A stretch of DNA of 64,000 nt from an uncultured delta proteobacterium (GCA_963792965.1 CAWBYW010000030.1:32001-96000); one strand, 5' to 3'. Shown: positions 3,693 to 14,284, numbered from the stretch's first letter. The notes: generated by a model not told the origin, from the letters alone. Numbers and translations are program-made.

Positions 3693-3719
3693 GTCAAAGG
3701 GGGAGCAACGTCCAGGCAA

Positions 3720-3747
3720 AAAAAAGAGGCCGTAGAGCCTCTTTTTT
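3720..3747. terminator. Intrinsic terminator downstream of the roadblock gene
   Basis: AAAAAAGAGGC-cgtaga-GCCTCTTTTTT hairpin with A/T tracts on both sides. Confidence 0.75.
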
Positions 3748-3967
3748 CTTTTCTTAAACCGGACGGGAGGGTTATCTTGCCGACTCCCCCCCTCTCTCGG
3801 TAGATGGTATGCGGCCACCAATCGCGCCGCGCCCACGCCGTCGTGGAAGTCAGACGATTACGACGAGACGCGACTTCCTCGCCGGCCGAGCCATTTTCAG
3901 ATACGCCGACACCCGCTTCCCTCCCACGGGGCGTGCGAGACGTGCGGCTTGCTATCAGCGGGCTGGG

Positions 3968-4336
3968 TTAGACGAGCTTTTCGAGCTCATCCACGGCGCG
4001 CTTCATGTCCAGAAAGACGAGTCCTAACTTGGCATCTTTGGTGACGAGGGCGGTCAGAACGGCGTCTTCGCCCGCGTTCATGAGCAACACGTATCCTTCC
4101 ACGCCCCTGATGAAGACCTGATCGAGTTTGCCGCGGTTCAACTCCTGGGCCGTCCGCTCGCCGAGGGAAAGCATCGCCGCGCTCATCGCCGCAACCCTGT
4201 CTTCTTCAACGTCCTGGGGGAGGGCCGACGCCATGATCAAACCGTCGACGCTCACGATCGCCGAGGCCTCGACGTCCGGTGTCCCTTTCTGCAATTCCTT
4301 CAGTATCTTGGTCATTGATTCGGTCCTGCTGGCCAT
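3968..4336 (-). CDS. Roadblock/LC7 (MglB-like) protein
   Basis: 122 aa; ASAIVSVDGLIMAS, RVAAMSAAMLSLGER, ELNRGKLDQV and AKLGLVFLDMKR are typical of Roadblock/LC7 proteins. Confidence 0.9.
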   Translation of the reverse strand: MASRTESMTKILKELQKGTPDVEASAIVSVDGLIMASALPQDVEEDRVAAMSAAMLSLGERTAQELNRGKLDQVFIRGVEGYVLLMNAGEDAVLTALVTKDAKLGLVFLDMKRAVDELEKLV

Positions 4337-4411
4337 ATCTACCTCCTCTATGTTCGGCCTGTTTATCCTGATTTTGAGACGCGGTCCGTATCGGTCCGCG
4401 TCTGATTGCCT

Positions 4412-5323
4412 CTATTTCTGCTTTGCCTTTTCCTCTCGCTCCGACAGCTTCCTGAGATTGAATTTCACCATCTCGTTGTCGGGTTGAATCTCAAGAGCCC
4501 TTTCCCACTCCTTACGCGCCTTGTTGTATTTGTTTTCGCGGAGAAATCGAAAACCCTGATCGAAGTGCTCGAAAAAATCCTTCTTGATCTCTTCGCTGAT
4601 CTCTTCGGGGGGGCCCGCTTTCTCAAGAGACGACCGGGACGCCTCATCGGCGATCCGGAGACCCTCCATGATCAGAAACTGCCAATCGCTCTTGATCGTC
4701 CGTTCTTTGGGAGATTCATTCCTCTTGGAGAGAAAGGTCCCCTCCGGCCAGGTAAGAATCTGAAAGAAGGCATCTTCTCCCACGACGTTACCGGTCTCCG
4801 CATGAATAATGTTGCCGTCTTTGAAGAAGATCTTGCCCTCCTTGGAGCCGCTGCGGATGATCAGGGAAGAGTGGGCCTTACCGAGGCAGTTCATCTGAAT
4901 GACGTCGGTGAGGAGGAGATCCTGAAGCTGGCCCTCGAAGCCTTTTCGCTCGTCCTTAAGGGAATCGAGGATCATCTCTCTGATCTCCTTAATTTCAAAA
5001 GGTTTTTCGATATAGTAGAGCGAGCCCCTCATGTTGGCGTCTTTTTGGACATCGGGTGAACCATAGGCGGTCATGATGATGACTTTGACATCGGGGTAAT
5101 CCCTCCGAATCCTGGAAAGGAGGTCCAGCCCCGAGATCCCGGGCATGCGGATATCGGTGATCACAAGCCTGATGCTCTCCTTTTCCAGCACCTTGAGAGC
5201 GTCTTCGCCGCTGTTGGCGATAAGGACTTCGAATTTATCCTTGTCCTTCGACAGGCTCTTGGACATGCTCCAGGTGAGATTTTCCTCATCATCAACGATC
5301 AGGATTTTATCGGCGGCCGCCAT
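4412..5323 (-). CDS. Response regulator, REC + DUF4388 (PATAN-like) + C-terminal TPR
   Basis: REC (ILIVDDE, ITDIRMPG, IMTAYG, IEKPF), then FEGQLQDLLLTDVIQM..GKIFFKDGNIIHA..GEDAFFQILTWPEGTF (DUF4388), then a TPR (ARKEWERALEIQPDN). Confidence 0.85.
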   Translation of the reverse strand: MAAADKILIVDDEENLTWSMSKSLSKDKDKFEVLIANSGEDALKVLEKESIRLVITDIRMPGISGLDLLSRIRRDYPDVKVIIMTAYGSPDVQKDANMRGSLYYIEKPFEIKEIREMILDSLKDERKGFEGQLQDLLLTDVIQMNCLGKAHSSLIIRSGSKEGKIFFKDGNIIHAETGNVVGEDAFFQILTWPEGTFLSKRNESPKERTIKSDWQFLIMEGLRIADEASRSSLEKAGPPEEISEEIKKDFFEHFDQGFRFLRENKYNKARKEWERALEIQPDNEMVKFNLRKLSEREEKAKQK

Positions 5324-5349
5324 GGGTGACTCCTTTGTTGAGGTAATAG

Positions 5350-5366
5350 TGCAATATAGATGCCAG
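5350..5366 (-). promoter_or_regulatory. sigma54 (-24/-12) promoter
   Basis: Minus strand CTGGCATCTATATTGCA = TGGCA...TTGC with exact GG-N10-GC spacing, about 27 nt upstream of the ATG at 5323. Confidence 0.8.
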
Positions 5367-5479
5367 ATTGCTCACTTATTTCTTCGATTGTGAGGATCCG
5401 TAAAAAGCCCTATAGTTTCGATATGATACGCATGGCCGAGAATCGGTGCCGAGCTGCCGTCCGCCATAGCGCGCAAAAG

Positions 5480-5520
5480 TGACCGGAAATCGTACAGATA
5501 CCCTGTCCGATAATCAAACA
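5480..5520. promoter_or_regulatory. Two candidate enhancer (UAS) boxes for a sigma54 activator
   Basis: TGACCGGAAATCGTACA (5480-5496) and TGTCCGATAATCAAACA (5504-5520) are similar imperfect 17-bp TG..CA palindromes, 115-155 bp upstream of the -24 element. Confidence 0.5.
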
Positions 5521-6863
5521 GCATCCTCGATTCCGTATCGCTTGATCTTTTCTATGAGGGTAGAGCGGGATATGCCCAGAAGGCGCGCCGCCTCCGATCG
5601 GTTCCCTCCGACGGACACGAGCACCCGAATGATATAGTCCCTCTCCATCTGAACAAGCGGCTTCACCTCACGGGGCGCCCCGGACGGGCCGCCGACGAGC
5701 TCCATCGGCAACACGGCGGTCGTCACCTTATCAGTATCGGTCAGGATGACCGCCCGCTCGATGACGTTCTTGAGCTCGCGGACGTTGCCGGGCCAGTGGT
5801 ATCCCATGAGGATATCCATTGCGCCCTCGGATATCCCCCTCACATTCTTTCTCAGCTCTCCGTTAGCCCGCTCCAGGAAGACCTCCATGAGGGGGGGGAT
5901 ATCCTCCGTTCGATCCCTCAGCGGAGGGACCTCGATCACCATGACCTTGAGCCGATAGTAGAGGTCGTCCCGGAACTTCCCTTCGGAGACGAGGCGGGCA
6001 AGGTCCTTGTTGGTGGCGGCGATGACCCGGGCGTCGACCGTGATCTCCTTGACTCCGCCGACAGGATTGAACGTCTGGGTCTCGAGGAACCGGAGCACCT
6101 TGGGCTGAAGCGAGAGCTTCATCTCCCCGATCTCATCCAGGAAGAGCGTCCCCCCGGCGGCCAGCTCGAAGAGTCCCTTCTTATTCTCCTTGGCATCGGT
6201 AAAGGCCCCTTTCTTGTAGCCGAAGAATTCCGATTCGAGCAGCTGCTCGGGGACGGCGCTCACGTTGATCTTGATGAGGGGAAAGTCGGCCCGTTCCGAC
6301 ACACGGTGGATCGCATTGGCCACCAGCTCCTTGCCCGTCCCGCTCTCTCCCGTCACGAGGACCGGCGTCCGCGGAGTCCTGGCCACGATGGAGATGAGCT
6401 CCCTGACCGCCTGAATGGCGGGACTTCTTCCGACGATCTCATGCGGCTCCCCCTGACGCTCCCGCTTGAGCGTGGAGAGCTGCGCCAGAAGACGCGAGTT
6501 CTGGAGCGCCCGGGAGACGATCACCTTCAGCTCCTCCAGCTCGAAGGGTTTCTGGAGATAATCGGTGGCGCCCGCCTTCATCGCTGAGACCGCCACTTTC
6601 ACGTCGGAATAGGCCGTCATGACGATCACCGGGATGTCGGGCTCGATCTCGCGAACCGTCGCCAGCAGGTCCAGGCCGTTCATGTCCGGCAACCTGATAT
6701 CAAGGAGGATGAGGTCGACCGCGCTGTCTTCGAGCACTTCCCGCGCGCGCCCCCCTTGTGTTACCACGACGGCGTCACACCCCTGCTTGGACAGAACGCG
6801 CTTGATGGAATCCCCCATCAGCGAATCGTCCTCGACCACAAGGATTTTTGGTTTTACCTCCAT
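5514..6863 (-). CDS. sigma54-dependent response regulator (NtrC family; REC-AAA+-Fis HTH)
   Basis: LLDIRLPD, GESGTGKE, GAFTDA, LFLDEIGE, WPGNVREL and GNRSEAARLLGISRSTL. Confidence 0.95.
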   Translation of the reverse strand: MEVKPKILVVEDDSLMGDSIKRVLSKQGCDAVVVTQGGRAREVLEDSAVDLILLDIRLPDMNGLDLLATVREIEPDIPVIVMTAYSDVKVAVSAMKAGATDYLQKPFELEELKVIVSRALQNSRLLAQLSTLKRERQGEPHEIVGRSPAIQAVRELISIVARTPRTPVLVTGESGTGKELVANAIHRVSERADFPLIKINVSAVPEQLLESEFFGYKKGAFTDAKENKKGLFELAAGGTLFLDEIGEMKLSLQPKVLRFLETQTFNPVGGVKEITVDARVIAATNKDLARLVSEGKFRDDLYYRLKVMVIEVPPLRDRTEDIPPLMEVFLERANGELRKNVRGISEGAMDILMGYHWPGNVRELKNVIERAVILTDTDKVTTAVLPMELVGGPSGAPREVKPLVQMERDYIIRVLVSVGGNRSEAARLLGISRSTLIEKIKRYGIEDAV

Positions 6864-6864
6864 A

Positions 6865-7991
6865 TCAGGAGATCGTCGGAAGGTTAATGATAAAGGTGGT
6901 GCCCTGGCCCTTCTTGCTGTTTACCGCGATGGACCCGCCGTGCTTCTGGATGATCCGGTAGGTGATCGAAAGGCCGAGTCCCGTTCCCTTGGCGTTGGTG
7001 GTAAAGAAGGGGTCGAATATCTTGTTGATATGCTCGTCGTCGATGCCGGCTCCCGTGTCGGAGACGGATACCTCCAGGACATGTTTTCGCGCGCTGTTCT
7101 TCTTGCCCCAGGCGGTGATGAAGATCTTTTTTCGCGCTCCGGATCCATGAACTCGATGGAGTTGAGGAAGAGATTCAGGAAGACCTGCTGCAGCTGCAGG
7201 AAATCGCCGTGGACGACCGGGAGGTTGGCCGCATATTTTTCGACAATCTCGATCTTATTGTTCTTGATATCCTTGGTGAGCAGAAGGAGCACCTCCCTGA
7301 CGACGTCCCTGATGTCGCAATGGACGAACATCGGTTTCTTGGGCTTGGCAAAGGAGAAAAAGGTCCTGAGCATCGTGTCCAGGCGGTCGATTTCTTTGAC
7401 GATGCGCGACAGGAACTCACGCTTGGGGTCGTCGGCCTCCATCTCTTCTTCCATCGCCTGGGCGGTCGTCTTGATGGCGGCAAGGGGGTTCCTGATCTCG
7501 TGGGCGATGCCGGAGGATATCTCTCCGAGCGAGGCCAGCCTATCCATCCTGAGGATTTCCTCCTGCATCCGATGGATCTCGGTGAGGTCCTTAAAGGTGA
7601 TGATATGTCCCTGGATGTTGCCGGCGTTGTCGGTATAGACGGTGGCGCTTGTCCCGATCGAGACCTTCTCGCCGTTGAGCCTCTTTACCTCGGTCTCCTT
7701 CCCCACCCGGGCCTCACCGGCCCTGAATCCCCCCGCGAGCACCCGGTCGATATCGCCGGGGCTGAAGATGTCTTCGATATTGTGGCCGATCACCTTCTTC
7801 CGGTCGTAGCCGAGAATGTCCTGGGCCGCCTTGTTGAAGTAGAGGACTTTCCCCTTCTGGTCTATGGTGATGAGGCCGTCCTGAACGATCTCGACGATAC
7901 TCTCGGTAAATTGCTCAAGGTCGGCCGGAGTCCTGGCGTACCGCTCCGTCTCCCCAGGGGCCTTCTTTTCAGTCCCCGCCTTTGCCTTCAT
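6865..7991 (-). CDS. PAS-domain sensor histidine kinase (one frameshift near 7130)
   Basis: PAS domain, H-box IAHEIRNPL and N-box LQQVFLNLFLNS; the shifted frame continues SDTGAGID..FDPFFTT..GTGLGL..GTTFIINLPTIS* ending at 6865. Confidence 0.9.
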
Positions 7992-8055
7992 GAAGCCTCC
8001 GTGCGCTCGGAAAAGTTGTTCACTAACACCCGATTAACGAAAGGAAACGGCCCTT

Positions 8056-8084
8056 ACTTTATCAAACGAGACAGGTGATGTCAA
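8056..8084 (-). promoter_or_regulatory. sigma70-type promoter of the kinase-regulator operon
   Basis: TTGACA-N17-TAAAGT. Confidence 0.55.
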
Positions 8085-9288: not shown

Positions 9289-11089
9289 ATGGCATGACAG
9301 CACAAGACCCTCAACGGTGTCTTCTGCGACAACGCGAAGAAATTCGCGGATGACGTCATCATCAAGTACAAGCCCCGGAAGGGAGGGCCCTATACCGACC
9401 TGACCTGGAGGGAGCTCTCCGACCGGGCGACGGCCTTTGCCACGGGGATGGTCGCCATAGGGCTCAAACCGGGTGACCGGCTCGGTATCCTGTCGGCCAA
9501 CCGCATCGAATGGATTGTTGCCGACCTCGGCACCCTCCTTTCGGGCGGCATAGATGTGCCGATCTACCACACCAACACCGCCGAGCAGTGCGCCTACATC
9601 GTCAAGGATTCCGGATCCCGCTTCATCGTCGTGGAGGACGCGCAGCAGCTCTCTAAAGTGCTCGAGAAACGGCGTGACCTGAAAGGGCTTGCCCGGATCA
9701 TCCTCATCGAGGGAGTCACCGCCCCAGGATAGTAGGGACGTCATGACGTTTGCCGAGCTCCTGGAGAAAGGTGCGTCGGGCGGCGCGAAGCTCCGGGCCG
9801 AGGTGGATCGGCGCACGGGCGCGGTCAAATCCGACGATCCGGCCACCATCGTCTACACCTCCGGCACGACCGGCCCCCCCAAGGGGTGCACCCTGTCTCA
9901 CAGTAACGCCGTCTTCGTGCTGGACTCCATCAAAGAGATTATCCATATCGACGGCCGGTCAAACCTCTCGCTCATGATCCTTCCGATATCCCACTTCTAC
10001 CCGCGCGTTTCGGGCTATTACTACAATATCTACAGCAATATCCCCTTTGCCATCGCGGAGTCTATCGACACGCTCGCAATGAACATGATGGAGACGAGTC
10101 CCACGTACTTCACGAGCGTCCCCCGTATCTTCGAAAAGGTCTACGCGCGGATCACCGCCGCGGCGTCCGGGGGCTCGGCCGTAAAAAGGCTCCTATTTCG
10201 GTGGGCGGTATCGGTGGGAAGGAGGCGGAGCAGGCTCCTCAACGGGCATGAGCGTGTGCCGGCGCTCCTCAGGTTCAGGTTCGCCGTCGCCGACGCCCTC
10301 GTCTTCAAGAAGATCCGCGCGCTCCTCGGGGGCCGGCTCACCTTCGCGCTTTCGGCGGGCGCCCCACTCTCCGCCGAGGTCGGTGAGTTCATCCACAGCA
10401 TCGGCGTCCAGGTCCTGGAGTTCTACGGGCTGACCGAGACCGTCGGCGGCACCATGACGACCTTTGAGGCGTGCAGATACGGCACGGTCGGCCGTCCGAT
10501 GCCGGGATTCGAGGTAAAGATCGCCGAGGACGGCGAAATCCTCATCCGTGGCAACAATTTCCTGGGCTATCACAACAAGGCCGAGCTGACCGCCGATACG
10601 ATCAGGGGCGGCTGGTGCTATACGGGTGATATCGGCACGTGGGACGTGGACGGTTACCTTGTCATCACCGACCGAAAGAAGGACCTCATCATTACCTCAG
10701 GTGGCAAAAACATCTCTCCGGCAAACATCGAAAATCTTCTCAAGCAGATTCGCCTCGTATCGCTGCCGATGGTCTACGGCAACAACAAAAATTACCTGAC
10801 GGCACTCATCACGCTGGACAAAAACGAAACGGAGTTTTTTGCCCAGCAACACGGTATCCCCTATGCCTCCTTTGAAGAGCTGACAGGGCGCCCCGAAATC
10901 ATGGAGGTGATCCAAAAAGGTGTTGACGCGACGAACCGGGAGCTGGCGAAGTTTGAGACGATAAAGAAATTCATCGTGCTGCCCCGCGAATTTTCCCAGG
11001 AGGAAGGTGAGATCACTCCGACCCTCAAGGTCAAGCGGAAGGTCATCACCGAAAAATATCGGGACCTCCTGGCATCGCTCTACGAATAG
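9289..11089 (+). CDS. fadD: Long-chain acyl-CoA synthetase (AMP-forming); disrupted near the start and at ~9730
   Basis: YTSGTTGPPKG, FYGLTET, YTGDIG, DRKKDLIITSGGKNISP and TPTLKVKR; N-terminal part (LTWRELSDR..GLKPGDRLGILS) is in another frame. Confidence 0.85.
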
Positions 11090-11095
11090 TCGACG

Positions 11096-14000
11096 ATGGC
11101 GCGCCTCTTTTCAGGACCCTTCTTCCCCTCCCTCGAGGAGCGGCTCGCAGCGCGAGCTTTCCTCGATCAGACAAAGGGACCCGTTTTCCCCCGTCGCCGT
11201 GCTCGCGCCCACACGGCCCGCCGTACGGAGGCTCCAGTCACTTCTCGCCGCCCAAGGCCCGTGGGTCAACATCCATTTTCACACCTTCTTTACCCTGGCC
11301 GTTTCCGTCCTCAAGGGGGCCGGGAAGGAGGTCCGGCCGAGCCCGCCGCCGTCCGCCCTTTCGCTCCTCCTGAAAGAAGTTATCGAGGCCCAATCGCCGC
11401 AAAACGAGCATACCCGCTTTTTCCTCAGGTACGAGAGCTGCCTGGAGCGGCTCCTTTTTCTCTTTTCCCGCTTCACCTCCTATCGGATCGACCCGCCCGC
11501 GCACCCGGTCGGGATTGAAATGACCCTCTTTGAGATCTATCGCTCGTTTGAGGACGAGAAGCTGGCGCGCGCGATCCGTGACGCGGAAGATCTTATAGGT
11601 GACGCCGCACGCCTCTTGCCATCCGGCATCCCCGAAGGCGTGCCACGAACCGTTCTGCTCTACGGTTTCTATGACCTCAACCCGGCGCAACGGGAGATTG
11701 TCAGGCACCTCGACGAGCAGGGCGACCTCACGATATGCGCCCCGGGCGGCTTTTCGGAGGAAGCCGAGGAATTTTTCGTCGAGACCCGCACCTTCTACCG
11801 GGAGCTCGCCGAGCGATCAGGGGGACACGGCGCAAACATCAGCCGCCGATCATGAGCCGGCGATCCTCCCCGTCGCACGGGACCTCTTTTCGACCGGGCC
11901 TGTAGCCCCGCACGAGGCCGGGGGCGCGATCGGGATGATCACCGCCTCGGGGATTTTCGGTGAGGCGCGCGCGGTGGCGCTTGAGATCGTCCGACTGAGG
12001 GAGGCACAACCCCTCGATCTCCTGGCACGAGATTGCGGTGACCATGAGGGAGCTTTCCGACTTTGCCGAAGCCCTATGCGGCGCGCTTGCCGACTTCTCG
12101 ATTCCCGCCGTTTTCAACGGAGGGCTTCCCCCTCTCGTCGATGCCCGAGGTCAGATATTTCCTCATACTGCTGTCCGCCCTCGAGAAGAGGCTTCCTCGT
12201 GACGACATCGTCTTTCTCCTCTCATCGGCACTTTTCGCCTGGCCGGATCTCGCTCTAACAGATCAAGCCTGGGTGCGCGACAACGCCCACCTCCTGTCGG
12301 CGATCGCCAGGAAATATCGGATCATCTCGGGCAAGAACGAGTGGGAAAACGCCTTCATCGAGCACGAGCGGTATCCCCTCCTCTTTGACCCCCTCGACGA
12401 TGAGACGGACGGCGCGGCCTTGTACGACCGGGAGCGATCGATGGCGCGCTATATCACCGCGGCGCGGCCGGTCATCACCGGATTTCTCCGAACCCTTGCC
12501 GACATCCCGGCCGAGGCGCCCCTTTCCGACTACCACGAGCGCTTCAATTCCCTCATCGATACCTACATGCGGCCCCTTGATGGAGGATCACAGGCCGGGG
12601 GCTGTCTCAAAGAATTGCTTACCGCCGTCCGCGGCGTCTCCGAGATCCAGGCGCATAGTCACGCGTGCGGAGTACCTCGTACTCCTCAGAAAAGAGATCG
12701 GGCAGCGTACCGTGCCCGCGCGCGAAGACGGTGACGCTGTCTTTGTCTCCGACGTCATGGGCATGCGCGGCCTCTCCTTTGATGCCGTCTTCCTCATGGG
12801 GATGAACGAGAAGGTCTTCCCGCGCATCTCAAGCCGCGATCCCTTCCTCTCCGACGAGACCCGGCACGGCCTCGGCCTGCCCACGACGGCCTCCCGATCC
12901 CTTGAAGATCGTATCCTCTTCGTATTGGCCGTTGCGTCGGCACAAGACCGGCTCGTCGTCTCCCGGCAGCGCAGCGACGATGCGGGCCGGACCAGTCTCT
13001 CCCTCCCCGTTTCTCATGGAGCTTGCCTCGCGGATAACGATCGACGGCGCGCCCGTGGACCTCGCGTCCCCTCTCGCGGTGAGGGCGGGGCGCGACTATC
13101 CCCGGCTGCTGGCGGCGGACCCCGAGATCTCCCAATACCGGCACCAGGACGCGCGCGCCTTTCTCTGTCTCGGATGGCCGGCGCCCGATGACCTGAGGGC
13201 GGTACGGGCCGTCGTCTCCGAGACTCCTTTCCTGGGGGCGGGACTGGCTGCCCTCGACGATCGGGCGTCCGACAACGCCTTTTCGGTATATGACGGCCTC
13301 ATCGGCAACGTCGACGGTATTCTCGATATGATCGTGCCCCTCTCGTCCAGGAAGCTTGAGACCTACGCCTCGTGTCCGTTTGACTTTTTCATGCGCGATA
13401 TCCTTTCGGCCCAGCTCCAAGACGATGTCGAGGAGGAGCTGGACGTAGAGCCGAAGGAGCTGGGCCAGTTGTATCATCGAGTCCTCGCCAGGCTCTTCCC
13501 CACCCTCGTCGAAAAGGGTCTCTTCACAGCAAAGGATGCCGATGCGAAGATCATCGAGGGCCTCGTGAGCGGATACGTCAAGAAAGAGGTGTCGGGAAAG
13601 CTCCTCGGGCGCATCCCCGCACTGATCCTCCGGGCGCGGGAGGAGCACGCCGCCTTGATCATCGGGCGCCTGATCGGACGAGAGCGGTCGATCTCCCCGT
13701 GGGGATTTGTCCCGGCACGCTACGAGGTCGCTTTCGGAGGGCGCACGGACACGTTGCCGGAACACCCCGCCCTCATCCTTACCATCGGGTCCCAACCCCT
13801 CCCCTTTGTCGGCAGAATCGACCGGATCGACATCAACGAATCGGAAGGCGCGTTTTCCGTTATCGACTACAAACGGAAAAAGCCGTCCACCAGGCGTAAG
13901 CTTAAGACCGAGATCGAGCGCGGCCGCCATTTCCAGCTCCCCATCTACCTCATGGCCGCAGAGGACCTCCTCCTTGCCGGAAAGCGGACACCCGCAGGGG

Positions 14001-14284
14001 GCGCCCTCGTCTATCTGGAGACCGACGACGGGCCCGACCACCGGGAGACGCTTTCGCGCGAAGAATACGAACAGACCCGCGATGCCGTCGTGGAAGAGAT
14101 CGGGGAAGTCATCACGGAGATGCAGTCGGGGAACTTTACCCCGTTCAGGGGAGACTCGTGCCGCTTCTGCGGCTATCGGGACCTCTGCCGCAGCGACATC
14201 AAGGCTATCGGCAAGATCAGAAGGGAAAAGACGACCACGGAGCCCGCCGAGGGCAAACAGGGTACTAACAACGATGAAGAATGA
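11096..14284 (+). CDS. addB: AddB/RexB-like inactivated helicase-nuclease subunit (about six frameshifts)
   Basis: Stitched from ORFs 11096/11007/11599/12063/12385/12902. Motifs: LLYGFYDLNPAQ, RGLSFDAVFLMGMNEKVFP, YASCPFDFF, GRIDRID, VIDYK, QLPIY and CRFCGYRDLC (Fe-S staple nuclease). Confidence 0.75.

Follow-up and report, generated by a model that had tools for sequence, protein, structure and literature searches.

A predicted sigma54 feed-forward circuit controlling a REC-PATAN regulator and an orphan roadblock protein in an uncultured Desulfobacterota bacterium

The stretch of DNA analysed here (the window) comprises 64,000 nt of an uncultured delta proteobacterium (GCA_963792965.1 CAWBYW010000030.1:32001-96000). 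Near one end its minus strand carries, in this order, a sigma70 promoter, a PAS histidine kinase, an NtrC-type activator, two boxes, a -24/-12 site, a REC-DUF4388-TPR response regulator (hereafter REC-PATAN, PATAN being the DUF4388 domain), a roadblock/LC7 protein and a terminator. The genes, motifs, conservation, co-loss and fusion patterns described below come from the sequence and its comparison with related genomes. They point to a circuit in which one kinase would feed two receivers, first that of the activator, then that of the regulator whose gene the activator switches on. The whole chain, from the kinase to a pilus or polarity output via a feed-forward loop, is given a probability of about one half.

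According to this scheme, the PAS domain would sense a cytoplasmic cue and activate the soluble kinase, which would phosphorylate the activator; bound to the boxes, the latter would open the sigma54 promoter, and the levels of REC-PATAN and of the roadblock protein would rise. Lasting kinase activity would then phosphorylate REC-PATAN and free its PATAN domain, as proposed for PixG, and the freed PATAN together with the roadblock protein would act on the type IV pilus motor or on an MglA-type GTPase. A coherent feed-forward loop responds only to a lasting signal.

Results and discussion

Control of the sigma54 promoter

Gene order is the same in 8/8 fetched loci of the host's family (the window family), as the original prediction would have it. 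The promoter TGGCATCTATATTGCA is the sole match to TGGCAY-N5-TTGCW in 64 kb, where 0.05 are expected by chance. That pattern is the sigma54 consensus, and the textbook sixth letter is C; TGGCATCTATATTGCA has T, so that the promoter, earlier called exact, is the only pattern match in the window and departs from the textbook form in one letter. TGGCA and TTGC are invariant in 10/10 aligned spacers, the conservation on which the original prediction depended. Among nine family sequences, mean pairwise identity is 0.74 in box 1, 0.76 in box 2, 1.0 at the -24 and 0.92 at the -12 element, and 0.36 in the spacer. The boxes, found by alignment (a repeat finder had missed both), are of the paired TGT-N11-ACA type; family pairs have a 24-bp period and lie 108-129 bp from the promoter. 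Half-sites TGT/ACA spaced by 9, 11 or 12 bp are a motif class described for Desulfovibrio activators (PMC4641369).

A box matrix built from eight relatives, with the window sequence left out, finds the pair once in the 3.36-Mb host genome, namely at the window locus (42.4 bits). The best box among the 96 sigma54-like sites of the genome is also that of the window locus (21.3 bits), followed by 16.2 and then 5.7 bits; a single weaker box (16.2 bits) lies at a contig end, at C1:9502. A wide regulon of the activator was considered and rejected, since the pair occurs only once in the genome. Likewise, in family f24 a similar pair, with an 18-bp period, is found in 4/4 genomes with the activator (G032, G198, G169 and G139) and is absent from 3/3 without it (G072, G107 and G227). 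Because the footprint is conserved, occurs once in the genome and is lost together with the activator, the boxes are likely the activator's enhancer, and comparative evidence leaves little doubt that the adjacent activator acts through them at the sigma54 promoter, as originally proposed. At L188 and L191 (G072, G107) the sigma54 site is kept before REC-PATAN though activator and boxes are lost; it may be a relic or be served by another activator.

The activator has the NtrC-type domain set (PF00072; PF00158, Sigma54_activat, E 3e-66; PF02954, HTH_8), and its putative target has the palindromic upstream boxes and -24/-12 promoter typical of that class. Its loop reads GAFTDA as against GAFTGA, a variant common to most orthologs printed. 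In a tree, the window activator and 17 other PATAN-linked activators group at 84/93 to the exclusion of 10 other activators of the host genome, which encodes RpoN and about a dozen sigma54 activators. Phosphorylation of the activator by the adjacent kinase is highly probable. Basal sigma70 read-through is possible: a terminator was not detected in the interval separating the activator from REC-PATAN, and box 1 includes the stop codon of the activator. Sites in the spacer resembling that of integration host factor (IHF) have two mismatches to the consensus, and no IHF role is claimed.

A probable second receiver for the kinase

The receiver of REC-PATAN has its catalytic residues intact (D11/D12, D57, T85, K107), and the kinase keeps company with it in the absence of the activator. 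In G072 and G107, both 99-100% complete and congeneric with G032, the kinase shows 83-85% identity, has kept its ATPase motifs and lies directly before REC-PATAN, and the best activator match is 46% vs 59-65% among family orthologs; G227 (80% complete) shows the same pattern, with the kinase kept and the activator lost. In eleven loci bearing the label Bacteroidota or 'bacterium', a hybrid kinase of the same signature directly precedes REC-PATAN, and there is no activator. Five of these genomes were searched whole: the best activator match is 41-45% vs 48-58% among orthologs, and rpoN is present in all five. Overall, 61 distinct loci divide into 25 with kinase and activator, 13 with the kinase only, 0 with the activator only and 23 with neither (one of the 13 and some of the 23 are cut by contig ends; f43 and G162 are not).

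Since the intact kinase stays adjacent where the activator is lost, it likely phosphorylates REC-PATAN too, which would give the coherent feed-forward loop. The kinases of orthologous loci have a helix signature in common, HEIRNPLAAIKTTAQA, and linked kinases share the docking helix HE[IL]RNPLA[AG]I[KR]; the docking-helix motif and the helix-1 motif of the receiver are both nearly invariant across phyla. The earlier idea that the kinase serves a second receiver gains from this retention beside REC-PATAN, the phosphotransfer itself being predicted.

Alternatively, in a plain two-step cascade, the kinase would serve the activator only, with REC-PATAN phosphorylated by another kinase (e.g. the CheA encoded at C30:111-118 kb) or working unphosphorylated, and the output would still be the pilus or polarity. 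Such a cascade could account for the 23/61 loci without this kinase nearby; in addition, a rank test of specificity residues (see below) is not decisive, and orphan PatA-type regulators are described in bioRxiv 2021.06.11.447907 as mostly phosphorylation-independent. It would, however, leave unexplained why the kinase is intact and adjacent after loss of activator and boxes in the three f24 genomes and in 11 loci of other phyla, and why the two helix motifs hardly vary; it is thus regarded as unlikely.

The wider family and a possible pilus or polarity output

The REC-PATAN clade is present in 38/401 genomes of the phylum, and also in records labelled Bacteroidota, Calditrichota, Gemmatimonadota, KSB1, Zixibacteria and Deferribacteres. 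Its layouts differ. Families f12, f13 and f104 have a sigma54 site, REC-PATAN(-roadblock), mglB, mglA, a weakly CheW-like gene, kinase, activator and pilM; f24 has kinase, activator, boxes, promoter, REC-PATAN-roadblock, mglB and mglA; the window family has kinase, activator, boxes, promoter, REC-PATAN-TPR and a separate roadblock gene. In the eleven loci mentioned above, a REC-GAF-PAS hybrid kinase gene immediately precedes REC-PATAN-roadblock and an activator is missing, and in f43 and others neither kinase nor activator lies beside REC-PATAN. Judged by these sequences, the window locus seems to be a pared-down version of a more widespread Desulfobacterota operon.

Of 20 mapped loci, 13 include mglA, and in 8 the operon runs into pilM. 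The host genome has pilB, pilT, pilC and pilM, and flagellin was not found in any of the 10 family genomes (completeness 88-99%). On balance, such neighbourhoods favour pilus or polarity control as the output. The polarity link of the original prediction is strengthened by the orthologous operons with mglB-mglA and pilM, from which I infer a probable pilus or polarity output of the window locus.

Two further arrangements are worth recording. At L183-L187 and L192-L194 the sigma54 operon includes the kinase and activator genes, with pilM immediately following; this is likely a positive-feedback layout and could also drive pilus assembly genes. At L083, L089 and L094 (Gemmatimonadota/Zixibacteria-labelled) a sigma54-preceded operon comprises this REC-PATAN, six roadblock genes and mglA.

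REC-PATAN and its probable roadblock partner

REC-PATAN consists of REC (residues 7-118), PATAN (130-228; PF14332, E 3e-20; Atlas 0.92) and TPR (252-283; TPR_2, E 2e-5, below the Pfam cut-off). In the structural model (predicted local distance difference test, pLDDT, 85; predicted template modelling score, pTM, 0.44) the tail forms a TPR hairpin capped by a helix. When the full model was used for fold searches, the matches listed were all receiver domains, and a PDB sequence search with PATAN gave no match, which is uninformative as to the PATAN fold; a single-sequence model of the PATAN domain (pLDDT 44.8) was too poor and was not used.

The roadblock protein belongs to the roadblock/LC7 family (PF03259), with PDB 7f8m as the best solved relative (E 3e-29; MglB chains E 2e-4). 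Its nearest relatives, at about 75% identity, are from Chloroflexota and Methanofastidiosum and form with it a slow-evolving clade. It shares 28% identity with the fused roadblock domain of G032 (E 2e-18), 30% with the roadblock next to a GTPase at C30:117.5 kb and 22% with the MglB of its own genome. It falls outside the MglB clade, the Group 1 MglB lineage included, and is not an MglB of the Myxococcus type; the link to MglB in the original prediction is to that extent not supported. A role as GTPase-activating protein (GAP) of the genome's Group 1 MglA was rejected as well, for that MglA has its own MglB. As a side observation, the Chloroflexota-type relatives (L222-L298) lie beside a conserved gene of about 210 aa, presumably V4R-like, in 26/80 loci, and beside a receiver gene in 20.

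REC-PATAN-roadblock fusions were seen in 9/44 aligned sequences by Pfam, in 10/120 among the homologs listed, and in 23/56 by a dedicated model (8 of them its seeds); a model of the fused domain matches the window roadblock (E 6e-8) and not the genome's MglB. The roadblock clade occurs in 13/201 genomes of the phylum, in three of them again in an operon with a REC-PATAN gene. PATAN and roadblock are therefore kept together across roadblock lineages, which suggests a direct pair, and it is probable, going by these associations, that the two proteins work as one unit.

The locus lacks a GTPase: no mglA lies within four genes, and the nearest MglA-like gene is about 81 kb away on C30. Nor was the operon's own mglB-mglA found in the window family, hence the roadblock would need a GTPase encoded elsewhere. 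In 10/10 family genomes operon-type MglA was not found (best match 58-60% vs 68-74% among operon-type proteins), and none of the five MglA-like GTPases of the host genome (C7:267716, C7:461017, C6:7058, C9:86432 and C30:117488) groups with it. The circuit, previously described as self-contained, is so at the level of transcription and not as regards the GTPase. The best candidate partner is the 176-aa GTPase at C30:117.5 kb, which together with a roadblock heads a CheR-MCP-CheW-CheY-CheB-CheA-CheC operon 15 kb past the window end (G000:C30:111000-118000, L049); the GTPase-roadblock pair of this type is present in 10/10 family genomes. The host genome has eight DUF4388 matches in all, and three of the five GTPases showed no adjacent roadblock match.

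Another possibility is that the module has been rewired through a newly recruited roadblock clade to a non-pilus and possibly GTPase-independent output, such as redox or stress signalling, or division-site or ParA-type positioning. At L131, L132 and L133 (G197, G048, G199) a same-clade roadblock heads an operon of ODP, HD-domain, PAS kinase and REC-PATAN genes with no MglA, followed in G197 and G048 by a ParA-like gene; the Chloroflexota-type relatives are mostly found beside other conserved genes and receivers and not beside GTPases; and PatA of Anabaena sits at heterocyst poles and division planes, with no obvious pilus role (bioRxiv 2021.06.11.447907, in the parts covered). Yet in three other families operons with mglBA also contain the orthologous kinase, activator and REC-PATAN genes and border on pilM, and any GTPase found with the roadblock clade is of the C30:117.5 kb type, held by all 10 family genomes. 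A rewired output is accordingly considered doubtful.

It is also conceivable that REC-PATAN is induced as a feedback brake that drains phosphate from its own kinase or inhibits it, the roadblock serving as scaffold; the circuit would then shape a pulse, with no motility output in the family. The two-gene operon is indeed the activator's only predicted target, operon-type MglA was not found in the family genomes searched, and a precedent for one kinase feeding two receivers, one of them a sink, exists in PixH, as reported in PMC11181946. A circuit with its own brake as sole output would nonetheless be purposeless, PATAN is well conserved and acts as an output domain where tested (according to bioRxiv 2021.06.11.447907), and REC-PATAN persists without the activator; this possibility appears quite improbable.

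Returning to the proposed chain with a pilus or polarity output, a number of points weigh against it. Type IV pili are common in Desulfobacterota, and for that reason pilus genes are weak evidence. The counted relatives are not independent, the 13 kinase-only loci representing a few events, and the 23/61 loci with neither kinase nor activator indicate that REC-PATAN can work without this kinase nearby. The specificity-residue comparison for the kinase-receiver pairing is no more than suggestive: L/M at position 14 plus S/T at 17 occurs only in the two receivers among the 67 of the genome, by a rule chosen post hoc; an unbiased BLOSUM ranking at four canonical positions puts them 9th and 21st of 66, and one at nine positions 2nd-3rd, no better than whole-domain likeness. 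A quick kinase tree does not settle the deep join of the linked kinases, and the clade of 18 activators has only 84/93 support with few outgroups. Moreover, scanning f12, f13 and f104 with the family box matrix revealed no strong pair upstream of their sigma54 promoters. Finally, the roadblock's nearest relatives are near an MglA-type GTPase in only 8/80 loci, the GTPase in those 8 being of the C30:117.5 kb type.

Relation to known systems

NtrB/NtrC-type systems, including the enhancer-binding protein regulons of Desulfovibrio vulgaris (PMC4641369), likewise pair a PAS kinase with a REC-AAA+-HTH (helix-turn-helix) activator, and in D. vulgaris paired TGT-N11-ACA boxes lie 110-130 bp upstream of -24/-12 sites, with one adjacent target operon. 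Here, by contrast, the target is a second response regulator with a roadblock, and the kinase stays with that regulator after activator loss; PMC4641369 makes no mention of 'roadblock' in its main text.

PATAN/DUF4388 joined to a phosphorylatable receiver is known from the PatA-type proteins PixG and PixE (bioRxiv 2021.06.11.447907, PMC11181946). As these sources describe it, one kinase feeds two receivers in the PixG system and PATAN binds the pilus motor; phosphorylated PixG, a PATAN-REC protein, localises to the leading pole and binds PilB1 (PMC11181946). The window protein differs in having REC first, PATAN after it and a TPR or roadblock tail, thus lacking the N-terminal PATAN of the PatA type. 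Its kinase, going by the sequence, would be a classic HisKA enzyme and not CheA, and its expression would be tied to sigma54.

REC-PATAN orthologs in mglB-mglA operons recall the MglA/MglB modules with PATAN neighbours of PMC4316618, whose Table S2 gives PATAN>MglB>MglA in Syntrophobacter fumaroxidans; the roadblock-PATAN neighbourhood is therefore in print. Unlike the modules described there, the window locus has no MglA, and its roadblock is an orphan of another clade. A sigma54 activator for PATAN-mglBA operons is not mentioned in the parts of PMC4316618 covered, which include few rows of Table S2. In the actinobacterial conservon CvnA-D, as described in PMC4316618, a histidine kinase is also encoded with a roadblock; that kinase is membrane-bound and comes with CvnC and a GTPase and no response regulator, whereas the window locus shows the opposite, a soluble kinase, two receivers and no GTPase. 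Similarly, in Myxococcus xanthus RomR/MglC/MglB (PMC10329633) a receiver protein and an orphan roadblock position GAP activity. Here, according to Pfam, DUF4388 and TPR follow the receiver, and the abstract of PMC10329633 describes no dedicated kinase-activator pair. Two Myxococcus PATAN proteins are mentioned, though not studied, in what was covered of PMC11580455; PMC10933270 and PMC12448109 provide background only.

A description of kinase-activator-sigma54 wiring onto REC-PATAN and roadblock was not found in the literature searched, outside which lay subscription papers and the original 2006 PATAN paper, and the original prediction had not recognised one either. The components are all known ones, and PATAN genes beside mglBA have been published; the wiring is undescribed in the literature searched.

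The locus, its host and the kinase reading frame

The features are collected in Table 1; all those listed in the original prediction were recovered, on the minus strand, by Pfam and by inspection of motifs and hairpins.

Table 1. Features of the circuit, numbered from the first letter of the 64,000-nt window
Feature	Position	Strand	Basis and remarks
Sigma70-type promoter of the kinase-activator genes	8056..8084	-	TTGACA-17-TAAAGT, TG before -10; 10/12
PAS-HisKA-HATPase histidine kinase	6865..7991	-	Pfam; frameshift at T-run 7127-7132
NtrC-type sigma54 activator	5514..6863	-	REC, AAA+, Fis HTH by Pfam
Box 1 TGTTTGATTATCGGACA, putative enhancer	5504..5520	-	Alignment; holds the activator's stop codon
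Box 2 TGTACGATTTCCGGTCA, putative enhancer	5480..5496	-	24 bp after box 1, 114 bp before promoter
Sigma54 -24/-12 promoter TGGCATCTATATTGCA	5350..5365	-	Predicted start near 5339
REC-DUF4388(PATAN)-TPR response regulator, 303 aa	4412..5323	-	Pfam
Roadblock/LC7 orphan, 122 aa	3968..4336	-	Pfam, E 3e-19
Intrinsic terminator	3718..3747	-	GAGGC stem, 8-T tail; terminator-like on + strand too

The host, a 3.36-Mb genome of the phylum Desulfobacterota, belongs to the family of Candidatus Zymogenus; Zymogenia are anaerobic fermentative rods, as described in bioRxiv 2021.03.22.436540. The genes of the unit are present in 8/9 family genomes, G002 (89% complete) being the only one in which the orthologs of REC-PATAN, roadblock and activator were all not found. 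A TTGACA box with a -10-like hexamer precedes the kinase in 8/8 aligned family sequences, and the same terminator hairpin follows the roadblock gene also in G005, G007 and G009. The unit is flanked by a divergent gene of the histone-deacetylase family and by a DUF2520 oxidoreductase gene with its own sigma70 site (3692-3664). The region 3' of the roadblock gene (3748-3967, about 220 nt) is twice as long as in three relatives and contains GC-rich inverted repeats (3837-3886); an Rfam scan gave two sub-threshold matches, and no family reached the threshold, this region included.

By Pfam the kinase has PAS_9 (E 8e-16) and HisKA (E 2e-14) domains. The highest 19-residue Kyte-Doolittle mean in residues 1-287 is only 1.07, hence no membrane helix is predicted in this part. 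As assembled, the frame shifts at a six-T run and the ATPase domain falls in the next frame, a break that the original prediction had overlooked while rightly describing a PAS kinase devoid of transmembrane segments. The ATPase domain is intact in 7/8 family relatives, G005 having its own break at another site, and contigs from two public runs (X1, X4) carry a seventh T at 7127-7132, with one other difference in 164 letters in the X1 contig; four such runs, with small shares of the organism, were used for this question only. The frameshift is hence a one-base assembly slip, and a genuine kinase pseudogene was rejected on the same grounds. Allowing for the slip, H-box and HATPase identify a class I (HisKA) kinase. 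Genes for an AMP-binding protein (9448-11089), an AddB-like protein (11096-14284) and pilT (G000:C13:23000-24600) are also split across frames, which points to more single-base slips in the assembly.

Conclusions

Beyond Myxococcus and cyanobacteria, the route from two-component signals to MglA-type GTPases and pili is an open field, and no function is known for most orphan roadblock proteins or for most PATAN proteins from outside the cyanobacteria. The locus offers a minimal soluble set of four proteins with a predicted enhancer, a promoter and two phospho-acceptors, for which natural deletion and fusion variants indicate which parts depend on which, and key steps of the circuit are accessible with purified proteins.

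A broader and more tentative view is that of a cross-phylum family, in which one kinase clade would phosphorylate a REC-PATAN protein with a roadblock either fused to it or bound as a separate protein, amounting to a phosphorylation-gated regulator of Ras-like GTPases. Were this true, the sigma54 activator would be an optional add-on, giving a feed-forward loop in the window family and f24 and a positive-feedback loop in f12, f13 and f104, whose sigma54 operon includes kinase and activator; and PATAN would be a general roadblock-binding adaptor, as the swap to a roadblock of another clade would then show.

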